From positions 592-16,850 of the forward strand of contig CAZEVX010000046.1 in the NCBI GenBank assembly GCA_964515705.1: a stretch of DNA of 16,259 nt. The letters are read 5' to 3'. Positions 2,388 to 15,926 of this stretch are shown here, piece after piece. The notes beneath the pieces are model-generated. The model ran no database searches. It saw nothing but the letters and a program-made list of their open reading frames with translations, and had not been told where the DNA came from. This DNA is from an uncultured Verrucomicrobiota bacterium. Its GTDB lineage: Bacteria > Verrucomicrobiota > Kiritimatiellia > JAAZAB01. A program made the position numbers and the translations under genes. Positions within the stretch are counted from its first letter, which is position 1. The number at the start of each line of letters is the position of its first letter.

Positions 2388-3587
2388 CTAGCGGCGCCGC
2401 GTTCTGCCAAAGACCGCCTCGGACAGGCGCGCGGCATCCACGGACACGGTGCGGCTGTCCCGCGCCACGGCGTGCTGTTCGAGGGTTAGGGTCAGCGTGG
2501 CGTTGGTCGTGCGCGACAGCCGGTCGGCCAGGTCCACGATCGAAATCCGGGCCGTTCCGGCGTCGTCCAGGGGCTGCCGCGCCGACCACGAGGCGTCCGG
2601 CAGCGACACGACGACGTCAAACGCGCCGAACGCCGGCGGGTCTTCCTGCGTTTGCGGCGGACCGGTTTCCGACAGCACCGCGCCCGTATCCAGCACGGTC
2701 TCGTAGGATCGCAACGCGAACAGGTCCGCGGTGGCGGCGATCCCGTCATAGGTCAGCGTCAGCGGCGTCTTGGCCACGTCCACGGCAAAGGCGCCCGCCA
2801 TCAGGGCGGAATCGGCGGCAAGCACGACGGTGTCCTTGGCGACATCGCCGGGGATTGCCACCAGGGTTGGGGGCAGGTCCACGGCGTAAATCACGCAGTC
2901 AATGGGAGGGCTCAAGGCGAGCACGACCGGGTCCTTCAGGCAGTTGATCGAGTATGCCATGGCGTCCTTGTTGCCCATGGCGGCGCCGACCAGGCTGAAC
3001 GGCAGCCCGATTTCGGCCAAGAGCCCGGGAATGCTGGCTCCCCATTCGCCGCTGAGAGTCAGGGGAAAGACATAGGATTCCAGTTCGCCATCGGACGTCC
3101 ACAACTTGCCGAAGAGGTGTTTGTCCGAGTCGAGCAGCGCGCGCGTCAGCCGCATGCCCATGTGATCGGTCAGCCAGAAGGCCCCGGTCCGGCTCCAGAT
3201 CGGGAAAAGACCGATGCCCCGGCACGCCTGCATGCCGGTCAGCCGTGGGAAGGTCACGTCGCCCAGGGTCCGCCGCCGCTGCACGCGCTCGACCTTGTAG
3301 TCGGAGACCTCCTGCCAGGTGGTGCAATTCGTGCCGGCGGCGGTCACCAGCAGGGATGGCGGCGCGGTCGCGTAGTCCACGTCGGCCAGCGCCAGGCTGA
3401 TGTTGGTGTGGACCATCTCGTTCGTGCGCTGGCAGGAGACGCGCTCGCCCTTGCGGGGCGGGGAACACGTCGTGCAGCCGGCCGCGAACGCCAGGCAGGC
3501 CATCCCGAAGAGCACGCCGATCCAAGCATGTGACGCGCCGGTATCCCGATCGCCGTTCCTGGCAATGTTCGTGCCGCCGCGATGCAT
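2388..3587 (-). CDS. Hypothetical lipoprotein.
   Basis: 399-aa ORF. The N-terminus has a hydrophobic stretch ending in the lipobox-like LAFAAGC|TTCS. No other family is recognisable by eye. The start is uncertain (the ATG at 3587, or an internal or alternative start). It lies 45 nt upstream of the kinase gene on the same strand. Confidence 0.6.
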   Translation of the reverse strand: MHRGGTNIARNGDRDTGASHAWIGVLFGMACLAFAAGCTTCSPPRKGERVSCQRTNEMVHTNISLALADVDYATAPPSLLVTAAGTNCTTWQEVSDYKVERVQRRRTLGDVTFPRLTGMQACRGIGLFPIWSRTGAFWLTDHMGMRLTRALLDSDKHLFGKLWTSDGELESYVFPLTLSGEWGASIPGLLAEIGLPFSLVGAAMGNKDAMAYSINCLKDPVVLALSPPIDCVIYAVDLPPTLVAIPGDVAKDTVVLAADSALMAGAFAVDVAKTPLTLTYDGIAATADLFALRSYETVLDTGAVLSETGPPQTQEDPPAFGAFDVVVSLPDASWSARQPLDDAGTARISIVDLADRLSRTTNATLTLTLEQHAVARDSRTVSVDAARLSEAVFGRTRRR

Positions 3588-3640: not shown

Positions 3641-4747
3641 TCACCCGAAGCGCTGTTCGCGGAAGCGCTCGTATTGCTTCATCAGGCCGGGGGTGATCGA
3701 GGCCGGGATGTTGCGCAGGGCGGCCTGCAGGTCCTGCTCGCGCACGACCGGCGCGCTGTCGTCCTTCACGCAGCGCCCGAGCGCGGCGCGCTTGGCGGCG
3801 TTGACGATCCCCACGATGTCGCTGCCGGTATAGCCCTCGAGGCGGTCGGCCCAGGCCTCGAGGCCGATCTCCGGCTCGCGCGGCGCGTCCTTCAGGCTGG
3901 AGGACAGGATGCCCAGGCGCGCGGCGCGGTCGGGCGGCGGGATGAAAATCTTCTCGTCGAAGCGCCCGGTGCGGAAGACGGCCTCGTCAATCTCCCAGGG
4001 CTTGTTGGTGGCGCCGAGCAGCAGCAGCACGTTGGCGCTATCCTCGAACCCGCCGACTTCCGCCAGGAACTGCACCACGATGCGGTTGTCCACCACGGAG
4101 TTGCCGCCGCGGCGCGGCAGCAGGCCGTCGACGTCGTCGAAAAACAGGACCGCCAGCGGGTGTTCGCGGGCGGCTTTCACCAGCAGGCGCAGTTTCTGCT
4201 CCGATTCCCCGTGCCACTTCGAGCGGATTTGCGCGCCGGACGCATAGTAGAAGGGCGCGTCCAGTTCGTGCGCGATGGCCTTGCCGAGGGTGGTCTTGCC
4301 GTTGCCGGGCGGCCCGTAGAGCAGCACGCCGCCGCCGGCCTTGAGGCCCAGCGCCTTGGCCTTCTCGAGCGCTTGCAGCGGATAAATCACCATCTCGCGG
4401 ATGGTCCGCTTGGCGTCTTCCATCCCGGCGATCATCGCGAACGTCTCGGCCGCCGGGGCGTCGCCGGGGGCGGCGGCCGGCTCGCGGGCGGTGCCGGGCG
4501 GCGCTCCGGCGGGGGCGGTGCGCGGCGGCGCGGCCTTCAGGCGCGCGGCGATCTCGAGCCAGCCGTCGGCCTCGTCGGCATAGCGCTGGGCGATGGCGCC
4601 GTCGGTCTGGCTGGCCAGGGCCAGGGCGAACTCGGCGGCCTTGGCGGCGTGGAAGACCGCCTCGCGCGGGCGTCCGCCGCGGATCAGGGTCTCGCAGCGC
4701 GCCTCATGCTCGCGCTTCTTGTCGAGGAGGAAGCTCATGAGATGCAT
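3641..4747 (-). CDS. Vps4/CdvC-like AAA+ ATPase (meiotic clade) with an N-terminal MIT-like domain.
   Basis: 368 aa. The N-terminal ~75 aa (REAVFHAAKAAEFALALASQT...AIAQRYADEADGWLEIAARLK) resembles the MIT three-helix bundle of Vps4. A Pro/Ala-rich linker follows. The AAA cassette has Walker A (GPPGNGKT) and Walker B (VLFFDDVD). The meiotic-clade signatures SKWHGESE and GATNKPWEIDEAVFRTGRFDEKIFIPPPD are present (cf. Vps4 [35 protein letters not shown]). The C-terminus (MKQYERFREQRFG) resembles the Vps4 C-terminal helix (LLKQEQFTRDFG). Confidence 0.85.
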   Translation of the reverse strand: MHLMSFLLDKKREHEARCETLIRGGRPREAVFHAAKAAEFALALASQTDGAIAQRYADEADGWLEIAARLKAAPPRTAPAGAPPGTAREPAAAPGDAPAAETFAMIAGMEDAKRTIREMVIYPLQALEKAKALGLKAGGGVLLYGPPGNGKTTLGKAIAHELDAPFYYASGAQIRSKWHGESEQKLRLLVKAAREHPLAVLFFDDVDGLLPRRGGNSVVDNRIVVQFLAEVGGFEDSANVLLLLGATNKPWEIDEAVFRTGRFDEKIFIPPPDRAARLGILSSSLKDAPREPEIGLEAWADRLEGYTGSDIVGIVNAAKRAALGRCVKDDSAPVVREQDLQAALRNIPASITPGLMKQYERFREQRFG

Positions 4748-4806: not shown

Positions 4807-5052
4807 TTATAAATGATTGACAACACGTTTGATGCCATCCTTCACGACGGGCACATTGAAGTTGATCAGAAGCCCCGGGTTTTTATTGGCAAGTTTCAGA
4901 TACGTATGCAATTGCAAAACAAACACGGGCGCCAGTTCCGCAACGGGTCCCAGTTCGCGATGTACGTCGATGGCGCAGCCGATAATCCGGCTGGCTATCA
5001 TATTCTCGGGTTTTCCCGTATGAGTTAGTGATTTCACCCCTCTCCGCGTCAC
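4807..5052 (-). pseudogene. Internally deleted GxxExxY / PD-(D/E)XK_3 family protein remnant.
   Basis: The translation ENMIASRIIGCAIDVHRELGP is joined directly to VAELAPVFVLQLHTYLKLANKNPGLLINFNVPVVKDGIKRVVNHL. These match the N-terminal (..VHRELGPGLLESVYE..) and C-terminal (..VHKAQLLTYLKLSGLKLGLLINFNxxLLKDGIKRIVN) ends of GxxExxY proteins. About 60 central residues are missing, including the GxxExxY and catalytic motifs. The track's M is a GTG at 5052 inside the flanking repeat. The real start is probably near 5001. Confidence 0.65.
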
Positions 5053-5088: not shown

Positions 5089-5718
5089 TCACTTCCCATC
5101 CAGCAACTTCTTCACCCGCTCCTGGCCGTCCGCCAGCCGGCTGTCGAGCGCGCCGCCGGCCCGGGCGGCGGCGGCGCCGCCGACGTCGGCGGCGACTTCC
5201 TGCTCGAGTTGCCGGCTGAGTTCTTCCATGCTCGGGATATGATCCTCGAGGGCGGCGGCGGCGCCTTCGGTCTCCTTGCCGTAGAGTTTTTCCCAGAAGC
5301 GGTCGGCGTCTACCTGCTCGCCGAGCAGGTCCTGGGCCTCCTCGAAGACGTCGGCCACCTGTTCGGGGTCGATCTTGACGACCTGGTTGATGCGCTGGAG
5401 CGCGTCGGAAAACTGCTGGTCGGACTCCGCCGCCTGGAGCTTGGTGTAATACTGCTCGAAGACCCAGCGTTTCTGTTCGAGCTTGGTCATCAGCACCTGC
5501 GCGGCGCGGTAACTGATCAGGGCGCGCTGGGCGGCGGCTTTCTGGCCGGCCGTCATCGCCGCGCGCGCCTGGTCCCATTGCTTCTTGGAGTCGCGGTCCA
5601 TCTGCTTGACGCGGTCCTTGACGGTCTCGATGGCGTTCTCGGCCTGGCGGAAGGCGTGCCGCCGTTCCTTGCGCGCGTCGCGCGCGCGCTCTTTCTTGGA
5701 CTTGAAGAGGTGGGTCAT
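5089..5718 (-). CDS. ESCRT-III / Snf7 (CHMP)-family protein.
   Basis: 209 aa. It has a basic N-terminus (MTHLFKSKKERARDARKERR, cf. Snf7/CHMP MGLFGKxxK...) and a helical hairpin rich in K/Q/A. The acidic alpha4-5 signature VVKIDPEQVADVFEEAQDLLGEQVD resembles Snf7 DIDKVDETMDEIREQVELGDEISDA. The acidic C-terminal tail ends ..LDSRLADGQERVKKLLDGK. A strong SD (AAAGGAG) lies 6 nt upstream of the ATG. Confidence 0.8.
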   Translation of the reverse strand: MTHLFKSKKERARDARKERRHAFRQAENAIETVKDRVKQMDRDSKKQWDQARAAMTAGQKAAAQRALISYRAAQVLMTKLEQKRWVFEQYYTKLQAAESDQQFSDALQRINQVVKIDPEQVADVFEEAQDLLGEQVDADRFWEKLYGKETEGAAAALEDHIPSMEELSRQLEQEVAADVGGAAAARAGGALDSRLADGQERVKKLLDGK

Positions 5719-5759: not shown

Positions 5760-6701
5760 CTATCCGTCGGTCTTGTCCGGGGATTCGGGCCGCGGCGCCG
5801 GGTCGCTTGCCGGCGGCGTCTCCTTGGCCGCGGGCGTGTCGAACCCGGCCAACTCCTGTTCGAGGGCGCTGGCGGCGGCGGGCGTCTCGAAGTCCGCCAG
5901 TTGCTCCCGGAACGCCTCGCGGTCGGACTCGCGCTCGCGCCGGCGCCCGGCGCGCTCCAGGTCGCGCGCGGCGTCGGCGCGGTCTTCGGCCTCCTGGACC
6001 TTGTCCTCGACGTCGTCAATCAAGTCATCGATCGCCGCGTCCTTGACGCCGGCCATGCCGTAGGCCATGACCTCGAGCATGCGCCCCTTGACCTGGGCGA
6101 GGGTGCGCTCGTTTTCGAGCAGGACCGTCAGTTCGCGTTCCGTGGCCTTGTAGGCGGCCAGCAGCGTCTGGAGTTCGGCCTCCAGCAGGCGCTTGCGGGC
6201 GGGCGGCGCGGTCTCGTAGACCTTCTTCTTGGCGGCGATCTCCTGGAAGCGGGTGTCGAGGGTCGTTGACAAGGCGGTGCGCCGCGCCGCGTTGGCGGCG
6301 GCGGCGCTCTCGATCGTCTGCAGCATGGCCTGCGGGGATTTGTCCTGGTGCAGTTTGCGGAACAGGGTCAGCGCGCCGGCGCCCAGTTTCCGGGTCAGGC
6401 GCAGGGTTTCCTGCATGGCGGCCTTGAGCTTGGCGGGGTCCGGCTTGGGCGCCGCCGGCCCGGCGGGCGGAAGCGCGTCTGTCGGAGCGTTCACGGGGTC
6501 CTCCTTGTCCGGCGGCGACGCCGGCGCCGCCGCCGGCGCCGGGCGGGCGTCCGGTTCCCGGTATCCGTGGGCCGGGCAGAGCCGGTTGCCGCGATGCCAA
6601 TGTAGCGCGCAGAACGGCTGGGCGCAATCCGGATGTTGGCAGCGGCCGGCGACGGCATACCGGCTGGGCAAAGGCTTGCCGCAGACACCGCAGGTGTCCA
6701 T
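5760..6701 (-). CDS. ESCRT-III / Snf7-family protein fused to an N-terminal Cys/His zinc finger (AN1/MYND/HIT-like spacing).
   Basis: 313 aa. The N-terminal C4-x2-C7-x13-C21-x4-C26-x4-C31-x2-H34-x-H36-x5-C42-x2-H45 is a Pro/Ala-rich linker. A Snf7-like core follows (..KKKVYETAPPARKRLLEAELQTLLAAYKATERELTVLLENERTLAQVKGRMLEVMAYGMAGVKDAAIDDLIDDVEDKVQEAEDRADA). Compare CHMP MDIDKIDDLMQDIADQQELAEEIS. The C-terminal tail has two LA[DG]F[ED]TPAA motifs and a Pro-rich end. The start is 6 nt after the OMP stop. Confidence 0.75.
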   Translation of the reverse strand: MDTCGVCGKPLPSRYAVAGRCQHPDCAQPFCALHWHRGNRLCPAHGYREPDARPAPAAAPASPPDKEDPVNAPTDALPPAGPAAPKPDPAKLKAAMQETLRLTRKLGAGALTLFRKLHQDKSPQAMLQTIESAAAANAARRTALSTTLDTRFQEIAAKKKVYETAPPARKRLLEAELQTLLAAYKATERELTVLLENERTLAQVKGRMLEVMAYGMAGVKDAAIDDLIDDVEDKVQEAEDRADAARDLERAGRRRERESDREAFREQLADFETPAAASALEQELAGFDTPAAKETPPASDPAPRPESPDKTDG

Positions 6702-6707
6702 GGCGCG

Positions 6708-7394
6708 CTAGAACTCCTGGCGCACGCCGAGTTCGGCGAACGGCAGTTGCAGGCGTTCGGCGAAGTCGCTGTTCTTCAAACGCTGGTCGCGGTAGCCGGC
6801 GGCCAGGTAGAGGTTGGCGTTCTTGGCGATGGCGTCGAGCGTGACGGCGTAGGCCAGCCCGCCCTCGTAGGACCACAGCCAGGCCCAGCCGTCCTTGTCG
6901 GGCACGTCGGTGTTCATGCGCATCGGCAGCACGCGGGTGTTGGCGAACAGGAAGAACCCGCTGCGGCCGAGCGGCACGTTGACGTTGACGCCCAGCCCGG
7001 CGCCGAGCCCGGTGGTGGCGAGGCTCTTGCCCCAGGCCGGGTCGTTCTTGAGGTCGTAGTCGTACCACATCCCGCGGACATCGGCGAAGATCCCGAACAT
7101 CGAGGCGATCTCGTACATCACGATGGCGTCGGCGTCCACGCGGTCCATGTCGCCCAGCGAGCCGTAGAGGCCCTCGACGCCGATCGCCCAGCGTTCGCTG
7201 TTGCCGGGCCGGAACAGCAGGCTCGGCCCGAACATGGCGCCGCTCTCGGAATAATCGCCGTCGCCGTAGAGCGCGGTGTCCTTCCAGTGCGCGCCGCCGA
7301 GGCGCAGTCCGTAGGAGGCCGTTTCGGAATAGGCGCCCTGCGCCAGCAGCGCCAGGGCAAGTCCCGCGGTCAGCCATCGAAGTCTCGGGTTCAT
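6708..7394 (-). CDS. Outer-membrane beta-barrel protein (OMP_b-brl-like).
   Basis: The start is taken at the internal ATG at 7394 (MNPRLRWLTAGLALALLAQGAYS signal peptide, with GAAAGGA 3 nt upstream). The track ORF extends to 7487. It shows an alternating hydrophobic/aromatic beta-strand pattern (WAIGVEGLYGS.., YEIASMFGIFADVRGMWYDYD, LGAGLGVNVNVPL, GFFLFANTRVL, WAWLWSYEGGLAYAVTL, NLYLAAGYR) and a C-terminal ..RQEF (terminal Phe). Confidence 0.75.
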   Translation of the reverse strand: MNPRLRWLTAGLALALLAQGAYSETASYGLRLGGAHWKDTALYGDGDYSESGAMFGPSLLFRPGNSERWAIGVEGLYGSLGDMDRVDADAIVMYEIASMFGIFADVRGMWYDYDLKNDPAWGKSLATTGLGAGLGVNVNVPLGRSGFFLFANTRVLPMRMNTDVPDKDGWAWLWSYEGGLAYAVTLDAIAKNANLYLAAGYRDQRLKNSDFAERLQLPFAELGVRQEF

Positions 7395-7443
7395 GGGAGT
7401 CCTTTCAGTAGGTTGTTGCGTGGCGGGGCGCGAAGCGACGATG

Positions 7444-7477
7444 GCTCGCGGAGACGCGGAGAATGCGGAGAGGAATC
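7444..7477 (+). repeat. Copy of the interspersed repeat (GCTCGCGGAGACGCGGAGAATGCGGAGAGGAATCC).
   Basis: The core CTCGCGGAGACGCGGAG is identical to the copy at 14343-14359. It is intergenic, between genes 7600-8298 and 6708-7394. Confidence 0.7.
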
Positions 7478-7599
7478 CTGGGCGCAAAGCGCCGTGCCGG
7501 AAAAAATCTCGCGTAGGCGCGGAGGACGCTGAACGATAGCCATACGTGCTCCTGCATGTTCCGCTACCGCCAACCTGCGGTCTGCCGCCGTCCGGCCGC

Positions 7600-8298
7600 C
7601 TAGCGCGGGCGGGTGCAGCGGCGCACCAGGCCGCGCAGCAGCAGCAGGCTGACCACCAGGGCGAAGAGCGCCAGGAGGACCAGCGCGATTTCGACCTTGT
7701 AATAGATCACCAGGTCCCGCAGCGGGGGATACGATTCGCCTTCGGCATTCGCGCCGCCGATGCGCTCGCGGGTGTCCACGCGCGCCAGGGAGAGCGGAAT
7801 GCTGACCCAGGCCCTCAGCCAGTCCTCGTCCACGTGGCGCACCCGGCCGACCAGCAGGGCGTCGGCGCCCTTGGCGCTCTCGGGGATGACGTAGGTTCCG
7901 CGCACGGCCTTCCACTTGATGGCGGCCTTGTCCATGATGTCCCCGAAGCCAGAGTTCGGGTCCGTCCGCGCCCACTCGTCCTCGATCTCTTTCCAGTCCG
8001 CGCCCCGCAGGATCACCACGTGGAAGCGCTTTTCCGCCGAGAGCCGGGCCGCCAGCAGTTCCGTGAAGTTGCGCGGGTCGTTGGCCAGCGGCAGGATGCC
8101 GATGTTGGCGACGCCCTCGAGGTGCGGCGCGTTCAGCGCCTCGCGAATCCATTGCTCGATGGCCTGCCCCGCCGCCCGGTCAATGGTCCGCTCGCGGATC
8201 ACGCCGGTTGGCGCCTGGAAGGCCGCCGGCGCGGTTCCGGCCAGCAGCATCCAGCCCGCCAGCATGGTTCCCAACATCCCGGTTGTCTGTCTGCGCAT
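7600..8298 (-). CDS. Hypothetical secreted/periplasmic protein with a C-terminal transmembrane anchor.
   Basis: 232 aa. It has an N-terminal signal peptide (MLGTMLAGWMLLAGTAPAAFQ), a GILPLANDP..ELLAARL segment reminiscent of CsgG/LpoB/TolB-N-type folds (weak), and a C-terminal hydrophobic helix (VEIALVLLALFALVVSLLLL) followed by a basic tail. Confidence 0.55.
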   Translation of the reverse strand: MRRQTTGMLGTMLAGWMLLAGTAPAAFQAPTGVIRERTIDRAAGQAIEQWIREALNAPHLEGVANIGILPLANDPRNFTELLAARLSAEKRFHVVILRGADWKEIEDEWARTDPNSGFGDIMDKAAIKWKAVRGTYVIPESAKGADALLVGRVRHVDEDWLRAWVSIPLSLARVDTRERIGGANAEGESYPPLRDLVIYYKVEIALVLLALFALVVSLLLLRGLVRRCTRPR

Positions 8299-8325: not shown

Positions 8326-9243
8326 TCACTTGTAGTGCGTCAGAATCCGCTGCAGGGCGTCCATCGCGCCCGGTTCGTAGGTCGAAAGCCGCAGCCGGAT
8401 GCCCGGCAGGTCCGCCAGCAGTTGGCCGATGTCCGACTCGTGTTTCAGCCCGTAGATGATCTCGTAGGACGCCGTTTCGCTCTCGCGGTCCCACTGCAGC
8501 AGGTCCACGTAATTGATGTAGGCCCGGCGTTCCAGTTCGTTCTGGATCGCCACGGCGGCGTCCATCGTCGGGACGCTGTTGACGATCAGGCCCGCCCAGA
8601 GCAACTGGTCGGTCTTGGCGAACAGGTCGTCGAGCAGCCCCGCGCTGACCTTGGCGCCGGCGGCGCGCAGGGCCAGCAGCCCGGCGCGCGCGCTGTCCTG
8701 CTCGCGGGGGCCGTCGGCCTCGAGGCGGGCCGTCGCCAGCAGCGTGCCGTCCCGCCCGCGCACCGCCTGGGCGTCGGCCGTGGCGCGGTAGCGGGCGAAC
8801 CGGCCGGTGGTGTTGACGAAGGCGCTGCGGGCCTCGACCCGCACCACGAGGTGCGCCTTGACGGCCCGGCTGAGCGCCGCCAGGTCGGTGGCGGCGGGCA
8901 CGGCGTCGCTGAACAGCCGGAAATCGCGCCGCACCAGCTCGCGCTCCAGGAGCGGCTTGATTTCCGAGGCCGCGGCCGTCGCGCCGTCCGGGCCGGCGAC
9001 CGTTTCCTGCCCGATGACCACCGTGCGCAGTTTGCCGAACTTGACCAGTTGCCCGCTGCGCGCTTCCAGCGCCCGGAGCGTGTTGGTCGGCGCGGATGGC
9101 GGGCCGGGGGGTGGCGGGAGCGGCACGGTGACCCGCGGCTCGGGCGGCGGGGGCGGCGGGATCGTGGAACAGCCGGCGATCAGCAATACGGCGGCGGCCT
9201 GGCCGACGGCCGCCAGGACGCGCAGGCTTGAGCGACGGGTCAT
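8326..9243 (-). CDS. Hypothetical lipoprotein with a Pro-rich linker.
   Basis: The start is taken at the internal ATG at 9243 (MTRRSSLRVLAAVGQAAAVLLIAGC|S lipobox, with AGGAGA 6 nt upstream). The track ORF extends to 9408 through a Pro/Arg-rich N-terminus that is probably not translated. The mature N-terminus has PPPPPPEP..PLPPPPGPP. Confidence 0.65.
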   Translation of the reverse strand: MTRRSSLRVLAAVGQAAAVLLIAGCSTIPPPPPPEPRVTVPLPPPPGPPSAPTNTLRALEARSGQLVKFGKLRTVVIGQETVAGPDGATAAASEIKPLLERELVRRDFRLFSDAVPAATDLAALSRAVKAHLVVRVEARSAFVNTTGRFARYRATADAQAVRGRDGTLLATARLEADGPREQDSARAGLLALRAAGAKVSAGLLDDLFAKTDQLLWAGLIVNSVPTMDAAVAIQNELERRAYINYVDLLQWDRESETASYEIIYGLKHESDIGQLLADLPGIRLRLSTYEPGAMDALQRILTHYK

Positions 9244-9364
9244 GGGGAGTCTCCTGGTTCCGGGATTAGGGTCGGTCGGACGCCGCGATCGGGCACGCGG
9301 CCTACAGTGTGGTGATGATTGTTGCAGGCCCGCTGCCCTCGCCGGGCGACGGGGTCGCTCGTGT

Positions 9365-11014
9365 TCAGACATCCGGGTGGCGGAACGGTTCGACGCGCAC
9401 CTCGCCATGGGGCGCGCGCAGGGTTTGGCCGGGCGTCAGCCAGTCGCATCGGCCGCCGAGATGCAGCAGGAAGGCGTCCTGCTGCCGGCAGACGCAGGCC
9501 GACCCCAGGCGCGCGTCCAGCAGGCCGAGGGCGGCGTGTTTCCAGAGCGCCACGATCGCCTCGTGCGGCCGGCCGCGCTGGCGCAGGATCAGGCAGGCCG
9601 GACTGTCGGGCGCCGCGCGCCCGCGGCAGGCGGGCTGGCACGGGTCCGCCTGGCCGCACGCCTGCAGGTCGAGGTCGAACGCCACGCAGGCCGAGTCGTC
9701 CGGGTCCGCGCTGCCGAGCGTCAGCAGATGGCGCCGGCCAGCGACGATCGGCGCGCCGTCCGCGTCGCCGACCCGGCGCCCGTCCAGGAAGGTCCCGTGG
9801 GTGCTGGGTTTCGCCTGCCGGGCCGGGGCCGGCAGGCGCCGATCGAGGAGCAGGCAGCGATTCCCGTCCAGCCGCAGGCAGCAATGGAACTGGCTGATCC
9901 AGAGCACGTCCTCCTCGCGGCGGCTCAGGGGGCGGGCCAGGATGTCGGAGTCCTTGTGGCGGCCCAGTTGCAGGAGCGGCGCGGCCAGCAGGCGCGCGGT
10001 CAGCGTTCCGCACCGCAGCGTCAGGCCGCGCGCCTGCGCCGCCGGGGGCGGGCGCTGGACGGGGTGCGGCAGGAACCCGCCGCCCTCGCGCGGCGGCCTG
10101 TAATGGTGGCATTTCTTCAGCGGCAGGGTTTTCCAGCGCGGCGGGATGTCGAACTCCGCCAACTCGCGCACCGGATCGCTGGCGCGCGACTTGAGGGCCT
10201 CGAGCCCGTTGATGGCCTGGTGCACCTGGGCGTCGCCGGCATGGCCCTGCTTGATGTCATTCTTGAGCTCGATGTTCAGCGTGTGGATCACGTGCCCGAT
10301 CGTTTCCTGGGCCTTGAAGACATGATGCTTGACCATCGCCCGGAACCAGTGGTCGCCGCCGTCCCGCGTGAAGCCGACGAGCACGTCGTACGAGATTTTC
10401 CCGCCCAGCCCCGACGGGGGGGCATAGTTGAAATAGATCGGGATGGGTTGGCCGCGGGAAATTTCCAGTTCGGGCTCGTCACTGTTCAGCAGCGCCTGGT
10501 CCAGACGGATTTCGACCCGCAGGTTGGAAAGCCCTTCGCGCAACGGCCGCAGGCGGAACTCGAACGGGAACATCATGTTTTGCACAAACACCCGGCTGCA
10601 GTTGAACTGGATGTCCCAGTCGTCACACTGGCTGCGCTCCATGCCATCGGTCCACACGGCGCTGTCGGCGTCCGGCTCGCGGTCGAGCGCCGGCCGGTCG
10701 GCGCTCGCCGCGCCGCGCTCCGCCAGCGCCTCGGCCCGCGCGGCGGCCGCTTCCAAGATTCCCGCCCGCCGGCCGGCGGGCGCGCCGCCCGCGCCGGCCT
10801 CCGCCGCGGGCGGCTCCGGGGTCGGGTCCGCGCCCGCCGCCGCCGCGATGCCGCTGGCCGGCGCCGGGTCGGCGGCCGCGGCGCGCGTCGGGGCGCTGTC
10901 GCGGGAGTCGGCGCCGGGCGCCGCCGCCAAATCCTGGCCGCAGATCGGGCAGAAGGCGGCGGCCTCTTCCGGCTCGAGCGGTTGGCGGCAGTGCGGGCAG
11001 GCGCGGGCGGTCAT
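9365..11014 (-). CDS. Zinc-ribbon + FHA-domain protein.
   Basis: 549 aa. The N-terminal CPHCRQPL..FCPICGQDL is a zinc ribbon, followed by an Ala/Pro-rich low-complexity region and a ~230-aa central region of unknown family. The C-terminal FHA domain is ..LQLGRHKDSDILARPLSRREEDVLWISQFHCCLRLDGNRCLLLD..STHGTFLDGRRV..IVAGRRHLLTLG (GR..DI, S..H, S.HGT.LDG and GxxxLxLG motifs). The start is 4 nt after the stop of the upstream SPFH gene. Confidence 0.75.
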   Translation of the reverse strand: MTARACPHCRQPLEPEEAAAFCPICGQDLAAAPGADSRDSAPTRAAAADPAPASGIAAAAGADPTPEPPAAEAGAGGAPAGRRAGILEAAAARAEALAERGAASADRPALDREPDADSAVWTDGMERSQCDDWDIQFNCSRVFVQNMMFPFEFRLRPLREGLSNLRVEIRLDQALLNSDEPELEISRGQPIPIYFNYAPPSGLGGKISYDVLVGFTRDGGDHWFRAMVKHHVFKAQETIGHVIHTLNIELKNDIKQGHAGDAQVHQAINGLEALKSRASDPVRELAEFDIPPRWKTLPLKKCHHYRPPREGGGFLPHPVQRPPPAAQARGLTLRCGTLTARLLAAPLLQLGRHKDSDILARPLSRREEDVLWISQFHCCLRLDGNRCLLLDRRLPAPARQAKPSTHGTFLDGRRVGDADGAPIVAGRRHLLTLGSADPDDSACVAFDLDLQACGQADPCQPACRGRAAPDSPACLILRQRGRPHEAIVALWKHAALGLLDARLGSACVCRQQDAFLLHLGGRCDWLTPGQTLRAPHGEVRVEPFRHPDV

Positions 11015-11018
11015 GGCC

Positions 11019-12680
11019 TCATTTCACCACGTGGGTCGTCGTGCCGGGATGCCTGGCCGCCTCGGCGGTCGTCTCGAGCGCCGACTTCAAGATGCGCTCG
11101 AGGCGCTCGGCGGATTCGTCCAGCAGGTTCTTGCGCTCGGCCCAGTCCTTGTCGCGGTCCTCGCGCTTGGCGCGCTCCATCTCCGCCAGCACCCGCACCA
11201 CGTCGGGGTTGCGCCCGGCCTGCAGCGCCAGGATCACGTCGGCCGATTTCCCCTGCGCCTGCAACTGCTCGTTCAGTTTCAGCAGCGCCTCGCGCCGCGC
11301 CGGGTCGTCGGTCATCGCCACCAGCGTTTGCAGGCTCAGCTTGTCCTGGACGGCCGCCCGCTCGGCGTAATCCTGGCGCTCGAAAGCCTTTTTCTTCGCG
11401 CGCACGTCGATCCATTTCAAGGCCTCGTCGACCTCGCGCGCGGTGGTCATCTTCGCCAACTCGTCCTGCAGCCGGGCGTCCTTCGTCTGCCGGTCGCGGG
11501 TGTAGTCGTCCCACTGGATCTTGACCTTGATCTCGTGGGCGGCCTTCTCGATCTCGCAGGCCATGCGGTAGGCGGCCTCTTTCTGGTCGAGTTCGTGGCG
11601 CTGCACCATTTTCAGCAGCGCCAGTTCGCGGTCGCGCTTCTCGGCCGAAATCGCGCGCTCCTGCGCCAACTGCTTGACGTAGTCCTCGAGGTCCTGCTCG
11701 CTCTTGAACAGGTGCATCTTCTCGGACGCCACCAGCTCCCGCAGGCGCTGGCCGAACTCGATCTCGCGCCGGCGCAACTCGAGCGCCCCGGCCTGCGCGC
11801 GCAACGCGTCAAATTCCTTGCCCGAAAACTCGGCCGCCGCCACGCGCACCAGCTCGAGGCCGTAGCGCTCGAGCGCCGTTTTCAGCGTGGTCTCGAGCGC
11901 GTCCTCGACCTGCAGCCGGCGCTGCGGGTCCTTGACCAGGTCGTCGGCCGTCGAGGTCGCGCAGAGGGTCGTCACGGCATAGCGCAGTTCCGCCCGCAAA
12001 ATCTCGGCGATTTCGTCCGCCATCAGCCAGTCGCGGCTCTTGAACAGGTTGGCCACGAAGGCCGGCGCGCCCTTCTCGGAGAAATGAAAGACGGCCTCGA
12101 TTTGCAGGTCCAGCGGCAGCTCCTCGTGCGAGCGCAGGCCCTCGAACCGCAGCGGCAGCGTCACGTCGCCGTTGTCCACCAGGATCGCCGTGCGCGGCGG
12201 CGGGTCGCCCCACCAGTTGATCTTGCGCGCCAGGCTCTCGAGGGTGTGCCGCCCGGGCCCGAGCACGTCCTTGTACGCCCCGCCGTCCAGCAGGATCGCC
12301 GCCGTGCCGGTTTGGATCTCAAGTCCGTTCTTCACCAGCGCCAGGATGTCGCCCACCTCGAGGCGCCGCGCGAACTGCTCGAACCCCTTCTGCCATTGTC
12401 CACCGGCCACCTCGTTGCGGCTCTCGGGATGCAGCGCCTGCTTGCAGTTCCAGCAGAACTCCGATTCGTTGCCGACTTTCTTCCCGCAGCCGGGGCATTG
12501 CCACCAGCCGCCCGGCGCCGGCGCCCCGCACTTGGCGCAGAACAGGGCCGCCTTCTTGACCGCATGCCCGCAGCGCGGCCAGCCGGGATCCTGCAGGGCG
12601 TCCTGCAGGGCTTTGCCGGCCAGCGCCTTGCCGGTGGTCTTGTCCACCAGCGCCCGGCAGGTATCCGAAAAGAGTCCCAT
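11019..12680 (-). CDS. Double zinc-ribbon + SPFH (band-7/flotillin-like) domain protein with a long C-terminal coiled coil.
   Basis: 553 aa. The N-terminus carries two zinc ribbons: PRCGHAVKKAALFCAKCGAP, then WQCPGCGKKVGNESEFCWNCKQAL. An SPFH-like core follows (GTAAILLDGGAYKDVLGPGRHTLE..TAILVDNGDVTLPLRFEGLRSHEELPLDLQIEAVFHF..). The C-terminal ~250 aa is Glu/Ala/Lys/Arg-rich, flotillin-style coiled coil. AGGAGA lies 5 nt upstream of the ATG. Confidence 0.7.
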   Translation of the reverse strand: MGLFSDTCRALVDKTTGKALAGKALQDALQDPGWPRCGHAVKKAALFCAKCGAPAPGGWWQCPGCGKKVGNESEFCWNCKQALHPESRNEVAGGQWQKGFEQFARRLEVGDILALVKNGLEIQTGTAAILLDGGAYKDVLGPGRHTLESLARKINWWGDPPPRTAILVDNGDVTLPLRFEGLRSHEELPLDLQIEAVFHFSEKGAPAFVANLFKSRDWLMADEIAEILRAELRYAVTTLCATSTADDLVKDPQRRLQVEDALETTLKTALERYGLELVRVAAAEFSGKEFDALRAQAGALELRRREIEFGQRLRELVASEKMHLFKSEQDLEDYVKQLAQERAISAEKRDRELALLKMVQRHELDQKEAAYRMACEIEKAAHEIKVKIQWDDYTRDRQTKDARLQDELAKMTTAREVDEALKWIDVRAKKKAFERQDYAERAAVQDKLSLQTLVAMTDDPARREALLKLNEQLQAQGKSADVILALQAGRNPDVVRVLAEMERAKREDRDKDWAERKNLLDESAERLERILKSALETTAEAARHPGTTTHVVK

Positions 12681-12911: not shown

Positions 12912-13259
12912 CTACCCGCTTTTCCGCCCGCCGGGCTCCCCGCCGTGCTCCGAACAGACCCGTACCCGCTTGCGCTCCCAGCAGTCCAGGCAGATCGGCG
13001 CCCCGCATTCCTTGCACGACTGGTTCAGCGACAACTTGCTCTGGTAGGTCTTCGCGCAGGCCGAGCATACCCCGCCGCCGCGGTCAATCTTACTCGTCTC
13101 CAGATAGGCATCAAGGTCTTTCCGCGATACCCGGTAAACTTTTCCGACCCGCGAGGCCGGCAACTCGCCCGCCCGGACGAGCTTGTAAATCAACTGGTAA
13201 TGCACGCCCAGCAGCGCGGCGACGTCGTCCAACGAAAGAAACTCTTTGTCCGGGCTCAT
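12912..13259 (-). CDS. Excisionase/MerR-type helix-turn-helix (HTH_17-like) DNA-binding protein with a C-terminal zinc ribbon.
   Basis: 115 aa. LSLDDVAALLGVHYQLIYKLVRAGELPASRVGKVYRVSRKDLDAYL matches the excisionase-family HTH pattern (cf. LLTVKEAAELLGVSRSTIYRLIRRGELPAVKIG..W.I.REDLEEYL). The C-terminal is CSACAK..x11..CKECGAPICLDCW..VCSEHG. GAAAGGGG lies upstream of the ATG. Confidence 0.7.
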   Translation of the reverse strand: MSPDKEFLSLDDVAALLGVHYQLIYKLVRAGELPASRVGKVYRVSRKDLDAYLETSKIDRGGGVCSACAKTYQSKLSLNQSCKECGAPICLDCWERKRVRVCSEHGGEPGGRKSG

Positions 13260-14372: not shown

Positions 14373-14405
14373 TTGTCCCGACCCGGAGTCGTGTGGCGGC
14401 CACCC

Positions 14406-15926
14406 ATGCCGGCCCGCGTGGCAGGCGCCTTCCTGATGCATAGCAACCACGGGAATGGCTTTCCCATGCAACACTCCATCAATACCGAGAACACCATCGG
14501 CAACCAGCCGGATGGCATGCCGGAAAGCTATATGCTCGCTCCGGGCCAAACGCTGGGCCATTACCGTGTCGTCCGGCCTCTGGGCAGAGGCGGGATGGGA
14601 GAGGTCTACGAGGTCAACCATCAGGTCTTTGGCAGCCGGATGGCGTTGAAAACGATTCTGCGGGAGTTTGCGGCCTCCGAGCGCTTTCAGAAACGCTTTC
14701 TGGACGAGGCGCGCCTGATGCACCGGTTGCAGAATCGCTATATCGTGCATTGTTCCGATGCCGGGGAGCATGACGGGATCTGGTACTTGGTGATGGATTA
14801 TGTGGAGGGACCTGCCGGCGAGCCCGTGAACTTGATGACGCTGCTGCAGCAGCGGCGCGAAAAGGCGCTGCTGTTCGAGGAGGAAGAAGGGGTGCTGGTT
14901 GGCATGCAACTCTGCGAGGCCTTGGCCTATGCCCACTCGTATCGGGACGAGCAGATCCAATCGGGGATCATTCATCGCGATCTCAAACCGGCCAACGTGC
15001 TGCTCAACCGGGATACGCAGTTGCTGGTCACGGACTTCGGTCTGGCGCGGCTGCTGGGGCCTGGGTTCGAACAGAGCGTGATCTCGAGGTCCATGGCCGC
15101 GGCGGTGTCCATGGGCGCCCAGGCCACGCGGGGTTCCCGTTCCGGCACGGCGGGGTCAGACCAGGTCGGCACGTTCGATTACATGAGCCCGGAGCAGCGC
15201 GAAGGGCGGGAAGCGGACGCGCGCAGCGACGTCTATTCCCTGGGAGCCATGCTGTATGAATTGTTGACGGGGCGCAAGGTGGCGGGAGTGCCGCTGAAAC
15301 CGAGCCGGGCGCGGAAGGGGTTGGATCCGATCTGGGACATCATCATCTACGAGCGTTGCTTGTGTGCCGATCCTGACGGGCGCTACGCCAGCGCCGCGGA
15401 GCTGAAAGCGGATATCTTGAAGGAAGTGCCGTGTGCGGCCGGCGAATGGGCCCCGGCCGGCCTGGGCCCAACCCCTGGTTCGGAGGCAGCGAAGCCGGAA
15501 GCGATTGGCCAACTCGCCCACGATCGCGGGCGGCGGGCAGTCGACATCCAGCCAAGATTGACGCCGGCTTCGCCCGCCGAGAGTCCCGTGCCGCCGACCG
15601 GTGTTGCCGAGCTGGGGTATTGGTATCGGGATGCGTGGAAACACGGCAAAACATTTTCCGGGCGATCCCGGCGCCGGGCCTTTTGGATGTTTACTTTGGT
15701 CGATGTCATTATTTCCTTCGGCGTGGGATTTGCCACGGCAGGGGTTGCCGAAATTCCATATATGATTGTCATGTTTCTCCCCAGGTGGGCGGTTGCGGTG
15801 CGCCGGTTGCATGACACGGGACGTAGCGGCTGGTGGAGTCTGCTCCCGATCCTCAATCTCGTCTACTTGTGCGAGGACAGCCAGCCGGGCGTCAACGCGT
15901 ATGGGCCGAATCCGAAAGGACAATAA
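14406..15926 (+). CDS. Hanks-type Ser/Thr protein kinase fused to a C-terminal DUF805 membrane domain.
   Basis: The kinase has a Gly loop (LGRGGMGEVYEV), catalytic Lys (MALKTIL), HRDLKPANVLL and DFGLARL. It carries a ~50-aa Ser/Thr/Gly-rich activation-loop insertion before GTFDYMSPEQ. The C-terminal YWYRDAWKHGKTFSGRSRRRAFWMFTLVDVIISF..IPYMIVMFLPRWAVAVRRLHDTGRSGWWSLLPILNLVYL..GVNAYGPNP matches DUF805 (E. coli YhaH-like: FSGRARRKEYWMF..LPWWAVQFRRLHDTDRSAWW..NRFGPDP). The start is uncertain among the in-frame ATGs at 14406, 14436 and 14466. The upstream part of the track ORF (13701-14405) is a GC-frame artefact overlapping gene 13847-14317. Confidence 0.8.
   Translation: MPARVAGAFLMHSNHGNGFPMQHSINTENTIGNQPDGMPESYMLAPGQTLGHYRVVRPLGRGGMGEVYEVNHQVFGSRMALKTILREFAASERFQKRFLDEARLMHRLQNRYIVHCSDAGEHDGIWYLVMDYVEGPAGEPVNLMTLLQQRREKALLFEEEEGVLVGMQLCEALAYAHSYRDEQIQSGIIHRDLKPANVLLNRDTQLLVTDFGLARLLGPGFEQSVISRSMAAAVSMGAQATRGSRSGTAGSDQVGTFDYMSPEQREGREADARSDVYSLGAMLYELLTGRKVAGVPLKPSRARKGLDPIWDIIIYERCLCADPDGRYASAAELKADILKEVPCAAGEWAPAGLGPTPGSEAAKPEAIGQLAHDRGRRAVDIQPRLTPASPAESPVPPTGVAELGYWYRDAWKHGKTFSGRSRRRAFWMFTLVDVIISFGVGFATAGVAEIPYMIVMFLPRWAVAVRRLHDTGRSGWWSLLPILNLVYLCEDSQPGVNAYGPNPKGQ

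Follow-up and report, generated by a model that had tools for sequence, protein, structure and literature searches.

A putative ESCRT-III-like subunit with an N-terminal cross-brace zinc finger, encoded beside Snf7-family and Vps4-like genes in PVC bacteria

We analyzed a 16,259-nt stretch of DNA from an uncultured Verrucomicrobiota bacterium (hereafter, the window). An operon on the minus strand begins with a gene for an HTH_17 DNA-binding protein and continues with genes for an SPFH/Band-7 protein, an FHA-domain protein, and a putative outer-membrane protein. It then reaches a gene whose product combines a zinc finger with a helical core (hereafter, the finger protein), followed by genes for a Snf7-family protein and an AAA ATPase (Table 1).

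Table 1. Features of the finger gene and its neighbors. Coordinates are positions in the window; residues are those of the finger protein unless another protein is named.
Feature	Coordinates	Strand	Evidence or remark
N-terminal two-zinc cross-brace finger (predicted), residues 1-50	6552..6701	-	
Pro/Ala-rich disordered linker, residues 51-88	6438..6551	-	low pLDDT, gap-rich columns
Basic N-terminal core helices, residues 89-122	6336..6437	-	KLGxGA...KDKSP motif conserved
Long antiparallel helical hairpin, residues 123-214	6060..6335	-	
Acidic helix 4, residues 215-251	5949..6059	-	AlphaFold2 helix 221-251
Acidic tail, residues 252-313	5763..5948	-	DLExAGRRRE motif; two short amphipathic helices
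Tail motif 1: F264, L268, F271 (i, i+4, i+7)	5886..5924	-	read from sequence
Tail motif 2, "ELAGFD": L280, L284, F287 (i, i+4, i+7)	5838..5873	-	in most family members
Vps4-like single-domain classical AAA ATPase, 368 aa	3641..4747	-	Pfam AAA, E 2e-34
Snf7-family (ESCRT-III) protein, 209 aa, directly 3' of the finger gene	5089..5718	-	Pfam Snf7, E 0.003
Putative outer-membrane beta-barrel protein	6708..7487	-	weak Pfam OMP_b-brl, E 0.004
Zinc ribbon + FHA-domain protein	9365..11014	-	Pfam FHA, E 1.6e-5
Double zinc ribbon + SPFH/Band-7 + coiled-coil protein	11019..12680	-	Band_7, E 9e-11; DZR, E 7e-7
HTH_17 DNA-binding protein, 115 aa, first operon gene	12912..13259	-	Pfam HTH_17, E 1.1e-15
Second finger copy, C-terminus of the HTH_17 protein	12936..13070	-	hmmsearch with the finger profile, E 1.4e-6
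Ser/Thr kinase fused to DUF805 membrane domain, divergent	14400..15926 (start approximate)	+	Pkinase, E 8.5e-39; DUF805, E 1.5e-18

The initial annotation had reported an open reading frame at 5760-6701 without naming its strand. We confirmed this reading frame, which starts with ATG on the minus strand and encodes 313 amino acids. The Cys/His pattern that had been described for residues 1-45 is also exact (C4-x2-C7-x13-C21-x4-C26-x4-C31-x2-H34-x-H36-x5-C42-x2-H45). It is matched by 61 of 84 close homologues and far exceeds what chance would produce. M1 is the sole start that retains the finger, because there is an in-frame stop two codons upstream. An AGGAG lies 12 nt 5' of the ATG, still inside the 3' end of the preceding gene for the outer-membrane protein, from which the ATG is separated by 6 nt.

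This long Shine-Dalgarno spacing, together with public gene calls that begin 3' of the finger (such as P0025, annotated at 232 amino acids), would be consistent with a true start downstream of an untranslated finger, in which case the Cys/His cluster would be incidental. We find this scarcely credible. The ligands are conserved over 129 instances of the finger and the residues between them are variable, which implies selection on the protein, and the AlphaFold2 model of the finger is confident. Furthermore, the start of P0025 was mis-called, because the ORF at 7001-7870 of its locus (L008) encodes an intact finger in frame, 5' of the annotated start. P0025 is an example of a wider problem: some database entries of about 230 amino acids, apparently finger-less, have mis-called starts. 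The proposition that all homologues of about this length lack the finger was thus rejected for P0025, but it stands for P0043, P0300, P0308, and P0315, and truly unfused relatives do exist. The finger is in frame and conserved, and the true start does not appear to lie downstream of the Cys/His cluster.

To define the ligands, we used the 129 finger domains collected by exhaustive profile search. Eight positions are nearly always retained, namely C4, C7, C21, C26, C31, H34 (His or Cys), C42, and H45: all of them are present in 111 of the 129 instances, most often as CCCC-CH-CH (85 instances) or CCCC-CC-CH (24). W35 and G46 are also conserved. In contrast, H36 and H23 are not ligands, since H36 is a histidine in only 40 of the 129 and H23 shows no conservation. 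Ligand pairs 2 and 4 are lost together, with pairs 1 and 3 kept, in 7 of the 129 instances, and no full-length sequence loses just one of pairs 2 and 4. This correlated loss indicates a cross-brace fold with two zincs. We propose that site 1 comprises C4, C7, C31, and H34 and that site 2 comprises C21, C26, C42, and H45. Structure prediction did not count against a metal-binding fold: AlphaFold2 modelled the finger at pLDDT 94-96, with a helix directly after ligand pair 3. By its ligand pairing, the finger is of the two-zinc cross-brace (treble-clef) class, with metal binding predicted from sequence and model.

An AN1-, MYND-, or HIT-type treble clef had been suggested. The class holds up, but the three named types do not. 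For AN1 (PF01428), neither the signature C-x2-C-x(9-12)-C-x(1-2)-C-x4-C-x2-H-x5-H-x-C nor a Pfam match was found; for MYND and HIT, neither a Pfam match nor a structural neighborhood was found. The nearest folds are ZZ, PHD, RING, FYVE, and C1, all of them weak matches, and the signatures of these folds and of AN1 differ from the finger's own C-x2-C-x13-C-x4-C-x4-C-x2-[HC]-x7-C-x2-H. Across 65 members of the family, no Pfam model reaches its threshold for the finger, with zf-CRD, zf-AN1, and zf-RING_2 all below it. Matches to zf-CRD (PF17979) occur in 50 of the 65 (best E 2.5e-4), but we rejected this assignment: with 15.5 bits it falls short of the gathering threshold of 26.3, and the match covers only positions 21-55 of the 158 in the model. 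A search of the PDB sequences with the finger profile gave nothing significant.

The finger had been called eukaryote-style and set apart from the fingers on neighboring proteins, and our results contradict both descriptions. Fingers of the same family are fused to bacterial HTH_17, FHA, and CHAT proteins, and on the evidence of these profile matches the finger is an unannotated bacterial module. The HTH_17 protein at the head of this very operon carries the same finger at its C-terminus, covering all eight ligand positions (C65, C68, C82, C85, C90, C93, C102, and H105), as do the HTH_17 proteins of related loci L009, L010, and L012.

The Pro/Ala linker (residues about 46-88) was described correctly: its pLDDT is 51-64 and its length varies across the family. 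It is followed by a basic segment (residues 89-122; net charge +6, pI 11.1) with predicted helices at 89-104 and 110-119, which is possibly an alpha-0-like contact with the membrane or the polymer. G107, L113, and P123 are nearly invariant in the alignment of 65 family sequences, and L248, G252, R254, L268, and F271, in helix 4 and the tail, are invariant. In the AlphaFold2 model, the remaining helices span residues 123-164, 167-214, 221-251, 259-271, and 277-285. The first two form a hairpin that turns at a conserved APPARKR motif, and the last two lie in the tail. Helix 4 has a net charge of -9 and contains the motif G-V-x-E-x-x-I-D-D-L-x-D-x-V-E, which resembles alpha4 of Snf7/CHMP4; it aligns with the "LDIDKVDETMDEIREQVE" stretch of Snf7 and with positions 69-121 of the Pfam Snf7 model. 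Both tail motifs have the hydrophobic spacing of MIM1 but not its Arg and Lys positions, and on the strength of this spacing they might bind MIT domains. Distant relatives end instead in terminal helices of the LxxL(E/K) type.

Is the helical core an ESCRT-III protein? A complete Snf7 core had been claimed, but no family member reaches Pfam Snf7 (PF03357). Even at E values up to 1, there is no match to this model in the finger protein of the window or in any of the 65 members, nor is there a match in 10 distant relatives. Pfam and NCBIfam scans of the finger protein gave the sub-threshold zf-CRD match only, and the Pfam model PspA_IM30 does not match either. The family consensus does align with Pfam Snf7 in register (E 0.047; 13.8 bits, where the cut-off is 27.3), but the YtzH family outscores Snf7 in the same scan. 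Similarly, among natural sequences in the PDB, the family profile best matches the core of yeast Snf7, colinearly over alpha1-alpha4 (E 0.54). When the profile was widened with distant relatives, the Snf7 match gave way to generic coiled coils (Rad50, for instance, at E 0.002); searching for homologues with this widened profile yielded no additional relatives. Fold searches with the core were unspecific.

Other features of the core are closer to what would be expected of ESCRT-III. In the model, the lengths and order of the core helices look ESCRT-III-like. The N-terminal half is basic and the C-terminal half acidic, as in ESCRT-III proteins (net +9 and pI 10.1 for residues 89-214; net -14 and pI 4.2 for residues 215-313), and the Snf7-family neighbor has a similar split (+11 and -12). 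The gene is also associated with a gene for a Vps4-type AAA ATPase. Because of the helix layout, the charge split, the tail motifs, the weak Snf7 matches, and the synteny, we favor the view that the core is a very divergent ESCRT-III-like subunit, although homology cannot be proven.

The gene directly downstream had been described as an unfused paralog of the finger gene. By its profile matches it is indeed a Snf7-family gene, but paralogy cannot be demonstrated, because neither BLASTP nor hhalign (probability 2% or less between the two families) detects a relationship between the core and this neighbor's family. We found 438 homologues of the neighbor, many of which match PF03357 and some of which NCBI names "Snf7 family protein." The neighbor's family profile matches yeast SNF7 (E 9.8e-4) and, more weakly, Heimdallarchaeota ESCRT-IIIB (E 0.055). 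The neighbor is far more conserved than the finger family (62-77% versus 35-58% identity), as expected if it is the main polymer and the finger protein an adaptor.

The AAA ATPase has an N-terminal helical region of about 100 amino acids and one AAA domain with a lid. It matches the NCBIfam CdvC model at E 1.4e-49, which is below the cut-off, and CDC48 models score higher; in sequence, the AAA domain is equally close to CDC48/VAT D2 and to CdvC. Its relatives in L003 and L004 (37-39% identical) pass the gathering score of Pfam Vps4_C, and it is only relatives that do. The MIT domain attributed to the ATPase was not confirmed, as Pfam MIT was not detected on any of five ATPase N-termini.

The triad of finger-family, Snf7-like, and AAA genes is found in the window and in six related loci (L001, L003, L004, L006, L010, and L014). 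It persists, with an AAA protein that contains Vps4_C, in distant lineages, where the relatives share only 16-20% identity with the core. L009 and L012 differ: in both, the Snf7 and AAA genes lie apart from the finger gene. PVC genomes also conserve the extended operon. The HTH_17 gene is kept at the head of related loci, the SPFH/Band-7 gene is conserved in L001, L009, L010, L012, and L015, and the FHA gene is conserved in L001, L009, L010, and L012. L009 also has a homologue of the outer-membrane protein gene, and there are several Ser/Thr kinase genes in related loci. The locus occurs across Verrucomicrobiota, Kiritimatiellia, Lentisphaeria/Lentisphaerota, and Victivallales, and the finger-protein family is confined to PVC bacteria.

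We propose that, in PVC bacteria, the finger protein would act as adaptor or nucleator subunit in an ESCRT-like module that remodels membranes, with the finger as its recruitment domain, and we lean towards this reading with modest confidence. The C-terminal 225 residues (the basic N region, hairpin, acidic helix 4, and acidic tail) would form the very divergent ESCRT-III-like part. The neighboring Snf7-family protein would be the likely main polymer and would work with the finger subunit, and the Vps4-like ATPase would dock on the tails and take the polymer apart or remodel it. Residues 1-50, on a flexible Pro/Ala tether of about 40 residues, would serve as a protein-interaction finger that couples the subunit to the products of the extended operon: the SPFH scaffold, the FHA protein, the Ser/Thr kinases, and the envelope proteins. 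The most specific coupling may be to the HTH_17 regulator, which has the same finger, or to a partner common to both proteins. We infer this nucleating or targeting role, as we do the homology of the core, MIT binding, and the partner of the finger, and it is the best explanation we can offer.

Instead of being ESCRT-III, the helical part might be a separate adaptor built on a helical hairpin, like CdvA or the ESCRT-I steadiness box, so that the Snf7 protein would be recruited rather than co-polymerised. The architecture would then parallel that of arCOG03733 (Zn ribbon, coiled coil, CdvA-like). We consider this somewhat unlikely: ESCRT-III proteins, but not CdvA or steadiness-box proteins, typically have this order of five to six helices, this charge split, and C-terminal motifs with MIM1 spacing; the finger protein has no PRC barrel and no detectable similarity to CdvA; and the sole family-specific sequence signals point to Snf7. 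The finger, too, could be of another kind, namely a membrane-lipid-binding head (FYVE- or C1-like) and not a protein-binding one. It would then anchor the subunit to the inner membrane, replacing the myristoyl or alpha-0 anchor of Vps20/Snf7, and we judge this improbable.

Two further explanations can be considered. In this operon, one finger family is represented twice, on the regulator encoded by the first gene and on the ESCRT-III-like subunit, and this pairing is conserved in L001, L009, L010, and L012. The two fingers might interact directly or vie for a common partner, as in a PspA-PspF-like feedback switch in which the assembly state of the polymer controls transcription of the operon. 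The idea is purely inferential, however, and L008 has a finger-bearing subunit without an HTH_17-finger gene within 7 kb upstream; we think that such a switch is unlikely, if not as improbable as a lipid-binding head. Alternatively, the locus might be an anti-phage or abortive-infection system and not a housekeeping membrane-remodelling one, given that the ATPase matches the PADLOC IetA models (E 1.4e-26) and the HTH protein matches mad1 (E 1.3e-8), that a ParE toxin and a PD-(D/E)XK gene lie in or near related loci, and that many kinase genes are nearby. These PADLOC matches reflect generic AAA and HTH_17 similarities, and PADLOC has no match for the finger protein or the Snf7, SPFH, or FHA genes. 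Because the gene order is also conserved over the whole superphylum, along with envelope proteins, we regard a defense role as very unlikely.

If the finger protein is a nucleating or targeting subunit, its closest functional counterparts would be Vps20/CHMP6 and Snf7/CHMP4. Like these, it is a small helical protein with a basic N half, an acidic C half, and an N-terminal targeting device, and its gene is accompanied by those for another ESCRT-III protein and a Vps4-type ATPase. Unlike these, it is bacterial and has no significant match to Snf7 profiles, and it would be targeted by a two-zinc finger on a linker and not by a myristoyl group or a Vps25-binding helix. The fusion of an ESCRT-III-type core to a recruitment domain is a design shared with CHMP7 (N-terminal ESCRT-II-like winged-helix domains and a Snf7-like core) and with archaeal CdvB (an ESCRT-III core and a C-terminal CdvA-binding winged helix), but the finger protein has no winged helix and would recruit via its N-terminal cross-brace zinc finger.

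Among prokaryotes, Makarova et al. 2024 (PMC10936438) described arCOG03733/arCOG03734, which comprise a Zn ribbon, a coiled coil, a CdvA-like domain, and a ribbon-less paralogue. The finger family is similar in having an N-terminal zinc module, a long helical region, a hairpin, finger-less relatives, and ESCRT neighbors. The archaeal proteins, however, have a simple ribbon and CdvA-like helices where the bacterial ones have a cross-brace two-zinc finger and ESCRT-III-like helices. The same study reported FHA proteins and Ser/Thr kinases in the archaeal "Main" and "Halo_FHA" systems, and SPFH with a zinc ribbon in "Meth_adaptin." PspA/Vipp1, the bacterial branch of the ESCRT-III superfamily, functions without a Vps4-type ATPase or a Snf7-type partner (PMC7619361), whereas the finger locus encodes a Vps4-like ATPase and a Snf7-family protein, and its finger protein has no Pfam PspA_IM30 match. 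Ravi et al. 2024 (PMC11237479) interpreted bacterial VPS4-like ATPases such as ACB74714.1 as transfers from archaea and reported that a TPR/6TM protein had displaced snf7. The locus studied here also has a bacterial Vps4-like AAA ATPase, but here the ATPase comes with a Snf7-family gene as well as a second gene that is ESCRT-III-like.

More tentatively, and with considerable doubt, we suggest that PVC bacteria might have a complete, vertically conserved ESCRT-like machine in which the finger family serves as a recruitment code. Its parts would be the Snf7 polymer, the finger-tethered nucleator, the Vps4-like ATPase, the SPFH scaffold, control by FHA proteins and Ser/Thr kinases, and envelope-spanning components (outer-membrane proteins and lipoproteins). 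Through the finger code, the polymer would be connected with its membrane platform as well as with its own transcription regulator, and the machine would perform membrane scission or repair (in division, vesicle release, or endomembrane shaping).

Recent syntheses hold that bacteria have no ESCRT components other than PspA/Vipp1 and that bacterial ESCRT-III proteins lack a Vps4-like ATPase (PMC10936438; PMC7619361), and in the papers that we searched we found no description of a bacterial Snf7 and Vps4 system in PVC bacteria. The locus encodes both a Snf7-family protein and a Vps4-like ATPase, which is a combination that reviews say bacteria lack, together with an unannotated partner family whose members resemble a second ESCRT-III subunit equipped with its own recruitment domain. 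An ESCRT-like machine in PVC bacteria, if real, would contradict the stated absence of Snf7/Vps4-type ESCRT systems from bacteria. If confirmed, it would provide a genetically compact bacterial model for the nucleation and targeting of ESCRT-III polymers, as well as a new family of prokaryotic cross-brace zinc fingers that is used in HTH_17, FHA, and CHAT signalling architectures. It would also bear on the origin of ESCRT and its transfer between domains, and on the debated eukaryote-like cell biology of PVC bacteria.

The zinc finger that opens the finger-core protein (a finger, a linker and a helical core) reads C4-x2-C7-x13-C21-x4-C26-x4-C31-x2-H34-x-H36-x5-C42-x2-H45 in the translation, which is identical to the pattern reported in the initial annotation. 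Two codons ahead of M1 there is a stop in the same frame, so M1 is the sole start that retains the Cys/His cluster. There is an AGGAG 12 nt upstream of the ATG, and the preceding gene, which encodes a putative outer-membrane beta-barrel protein, ends 6 nt before it. Public gene calls of about 230 amino acids appear to lack the finger, and at least one of these has a mis-called start: P0025 is annotated as 232 amino acids from an internal Met, and the open reading frame in its locus (L008, 7001-7870) includes the finger in frame. Annotations of several family members of about 230 amino acids may be truncated similarly. With the cluster in frame and conserved, a true start downstream of it, and with it an untranslated finger, is excluded in practice.

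Features of the window and of the finger-core protein (nucleotide positions in the window; residues where stated)
Feature	Position	Strand	Details
Finger-core gene	5760-6701	-	ORF, 313 aa, ATG start
Pro/Ala linker	residues ~46-88		disordered, pLDDT 51-64 (AlphaFold2)
Two short basic helices	residues 89-104, 110-119		AlphaFold2
Long hairpin	residues 123-164, 167-214		pLDDT 90-97 (AlphaFold2)
Acidic helix	residues 221-251		AlphaFold2
Two short helices in acidic tail	residues 259-271, 277-285		AlphaFold2
Snf7-family gene	5089-5718	-	directly downstream of finger-core gene
PD-(D/E)XK_3 remnant	4807-5052	-	81 aa, between Snf7-like and AAA genes
AAA ATPase	3641-4747	-	single-domain, classical; next full-length gene after Snf7-like
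ORF 3' of ATPase	2388-3587	-	399 aa
Envelope-protein gene	6708-7487	-	weak OMP beta-barrel match
Envelope-protein gene	7600-8298	-	232 aa
Envelope-protein gene	8326-9408	-	probable lipoprotein; likely start near 9243
HTH_17 gene	12912-13259	-	first operon gene
Second finger copy	12936-13070	-	finger profile
Ser/Thr kinase gene	14400-15926	+	C-terminal DUF805 membrane domain

A homologue search returned 84 cluster representatives, all unannotated and metagenome-derived, and 61 of them match the Cys/His pattern. When the family profile was run exhaustively with HMMER against 1.84 billion representatives, 129 proteins scored E ≤0.001. We aligned every finger instance to a finger-only profile (129 domains). 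The ligand sets were CCCC-CH-CH (85 domains), CCCC-CC-CH (24) and all-Cys (2); C31 never varies, and W35 occurs in 121/129. Because the ligand positions are conserved across these domains while H23 is not and H36 is His in just 40, the finger appears to have eight ligands, which would suffice to coordinate two zincs. Seven of the fingers (P0083, P0233, P0237, P0259, P0260, P0306 and P0313) have lost both C21/C26 and C42/H45 and kept C4/C7 and C31/H34; no full-length finger in the alignment has lost just one of the first two pairs. Such joint loss is what a cross-brace predicts, with C4, C7, C31 and H34 as the predicted site 1 and C21, C26, C42 and H45 as the predicted site 2. (The seven proteins form a sub-lineage with a degenerate finger that has the first zinc site only.) AlphaFold2 models residues 1-50 with a pLDDT of 96 in the full-length protein (65-sequence alignment, mean pLDDT 81) and 94.4 for the domain alone, with short beta-pairs and a helix at 32-37 that begins directly after the third ligand pair, so structure prediction does not speak against a metal-binding fold. 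The Pro/Ala linker described initially is predicted to be disordered. We conclude that the protein carries a conserved cross-brace finger, with two predicted zinc sites, on a flexible tether.

No Pfam model reached threshold for the finger in the 65 family members scanned, and the finger profile had no significant match among PDB sequences. Below threshold, zf-CRD (PF17979) matched 50/65 members (at best E 2.5e-4, and over just 35 of the model's 158 positions), zf-AN1 matched 5/65 (best E 0.021), and zf-RING_2 matched the window protein (E 0.49). The proposed treble-clef class, in a two-zinc form, is thus supported, but not the likeness to AN1, MYND or HIT fingers in particular. Nor is "eukaryote-style" supported, as the same finger occurs on bacterial HTH_17, FHA and CHAT proteins. 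The exhaustive search found it in HTH_17-finger(-finger)-C-terminal-domain proteins (P0296, P0297, P0307, P0312, P0316 and P0320-P0322), FHA-FHA-finger (P0291) and CHAT-finger-finger (P0323), and at the protein start in P0292, P0304, P0305 and P0319. Finger proteins outside the finger-core family usually have Cys as their sixth ligand. When the six-frame translation of the window was searched with the finger profile, a second finger (E 1.4e-6) appeared at the C-terminal end of the HTH_17 protein; it aligns at all eight ligand positions (C65, C68, C82, C85, C90, C93, C102 and H105), and L009, L010 and L012 likewise have the finger on both proteins. The SPFH and FHA proteins do carry plain zinc ribbons, in line with the initial view that the neighbours have only simple ribbons; for this first gene, that view is wrong. 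We consider the finger family to be an unannotated bacterial cross-brace module.

Outside the ESCRT-like operon, the finger, often in tandem duplicate, usually precedes a common unannotated C-terminal domain of about 300 amino acids, which closes with a winged-helix-like "...GLVISR" motif and is combined with HTH_17, FHA or CHAT. These proteins (P0291, P0292, P0296, P0297, P0307, P0316 and P0320-P0323) are a separate uncharacterised bacterial family.

The gene downstream of the finger-core gene encodes a Snf7-family protein. It matches Pfam Snf7 (E 0.003), many of its 438 homologues match PF03357, and NCBI names some of these "Snf7 family protein"; the family profile matches yeast SNF7 (E 9.8e-4) and Heimdallarchaeota ESCRT-IIIB (E 0.055). 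Relatives of the AAA ATPase at 37-39% identity exceed the Pfam Vps4_C gathering score; Pfam did not detect a MIT domain in the ATPase. The most distant core relatives that we could place on contigs (P0300, P0308 and P0315, each 16-20% identical and without a fused finger) all lie in a triad of core-family, Snf7-like and AAA genes, and therefore the partnership is older than the finger fusion. The Snf7-like protein is much the more conserved of the two, at 62-77% identity to its best 120 matches versus 35-58% for the finger-core family. In genomic terms, the finger-core protein obligately accompanies a Snf7 protein and a Vps4-like ATPase. The remnant between these two genes matches just the last 40 positions of PF13366 (E 1.2e-10) and has a GC content of 0.58 (about 0.70 elsewhere); L001 has a full PDDEXK_3 gene (154 aa) at the equivalent position.

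The finger-bearing form is found in metagenome-assembled genomes of Verrucomicrobiota, Kiritimatiellia, Lentisphaeria and Victivallales (GTDB genomes). The extended order is HTH_17-finger, zinc-ribbon-SPFH, zinc-ribbon-FHA, variable envelope genes, finger-core, Snf7-like and AAA, and it is kept in L001, L009, L010 and L012. The exceptions are the envelope genes, which vary, and the Snf7-like and AAA genes of L009 and L012. Several Ser/Thr kinase genes flank this operon. The kinase in the window matches Pkinase (E 8.5e-39) and DUF805 (E 1.5e-18), and related loci have 2-5 kinase genes around the operon; some of these kinases also carry PEGA or another extracytoplasmic domain. Among the three envelope-protein genes between the FHA and finger genes, the probable lipoprotein has an "LLIAGC" lipobox, and its L001 counterpart exceeds the Pfam LpoB cut-off (25.3 versus 22.3 bits); the 232-residue product has hydrophobic N- and C-terminal stretches that, judged by sequence, resemble a signal peptide and a membrane anchor. 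In L001, L010 and L012, the envelope block varies or is absent. The ORF 3' of the ATPase had no Pfam, NCBIfam or PADLOC match and was not found by BLAST in related loci.

The initial annotation called the rest of the protein a complete Snf7 core. The helix layout, charge split and tail-motif spacing are ESCRT-III-like. In the AlphaFold2 model, helix order and lengths resemble those of ESCRT-III proteins. The charge of the core is +9 in the N half (pI 10.1) and -14 in the C half (pI 4.2), and the Snf7-like neighbour is split in the same way (+11/-12). The tail has two conserved motifs with hydrophobics at i, i+4 and i+7 (F264/L268/F271 and L280/L284/F287; L268 and F271 are invariant), which is the spacing of MIM1 helices; distant relatives have terminal LxxL(E/K)-type helices instead. 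Of the natural proteins among 177,635 PDB sequences, the yeast Snf7 core matches the family profile best (E 0.54) and is colinear with it over alpha1-alpha4. Positions 69-121 of Pfam Snf7 align with the family consensus (E 0.047), a comparison in which the YtzH family has the higher score, and a broader profile reaches CHMP4B alpha4-5 at E 5.5. These matches are weak, but their register is consistent. The evidence against Snf7 homology is substantial: Pfam Snf7 matches 0/65 members and 0/10 distant relatives, hhalign gives a probability of ≤2% between the core family and the neighbouring Snf7-like family, and Foldseek found nothing below E 0.06, although Vipp1 ranks fourth and accounts for 5 of the top 50 matches. 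For these reasons, we lean towards "ESCRT-III-like" as the most probable reading of the core, with membership not established; under the rival reading, it is not an ESCRT-III protein but a hairpin adaptor of the CdvA or ESCRT-I-like kind.

The finger-core protein is probably a recruited subunit that acts as nucleator or adaptor. Docking would be through its finger, onto one of the proteins of the extended module, the finger of the HTH_17 regulator, or a partner shared with that regulator; the basic N-terminal helices and hairpin would seed or cap the Snf7 polymer; and the tail motifs would bind the ATPase. Alternatively, the finger might be a lipid-binding head, or a component of a PspA/PspF-like regulatory switch, and the locus as a whole might be a defence system.

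Makarova et al. (2024, PMC10936438) state that ESCRT homologues can be recognised in archaea "but not in bacteria"; the archaeal systems that they describe include FHA proteins, Ser/Thr kinases and SPFH proteins with a zinc ribbon, as well as proteins that combine Zn-ribbon, coiled-coil and CdvA-like parts. According to a 2025 review (PMC7619361), a Vps4-like ATPase "appears absent in bacteria", and Ravi et al. (2024, PMC11237479) describe VPS4-like ATPases that were transferred to bacteria, with snf7 displaced there. We found no published description of the PVC locus or the finger family in a partial coverage of the literature, and an earlier description may exist elsewhere. What appears to be new is a bacterial ESCRT-III/Vps4-type module with an unannotated, finger-tethered partner subunit, together with an unannotated bacterial family of cross-brace fingers.
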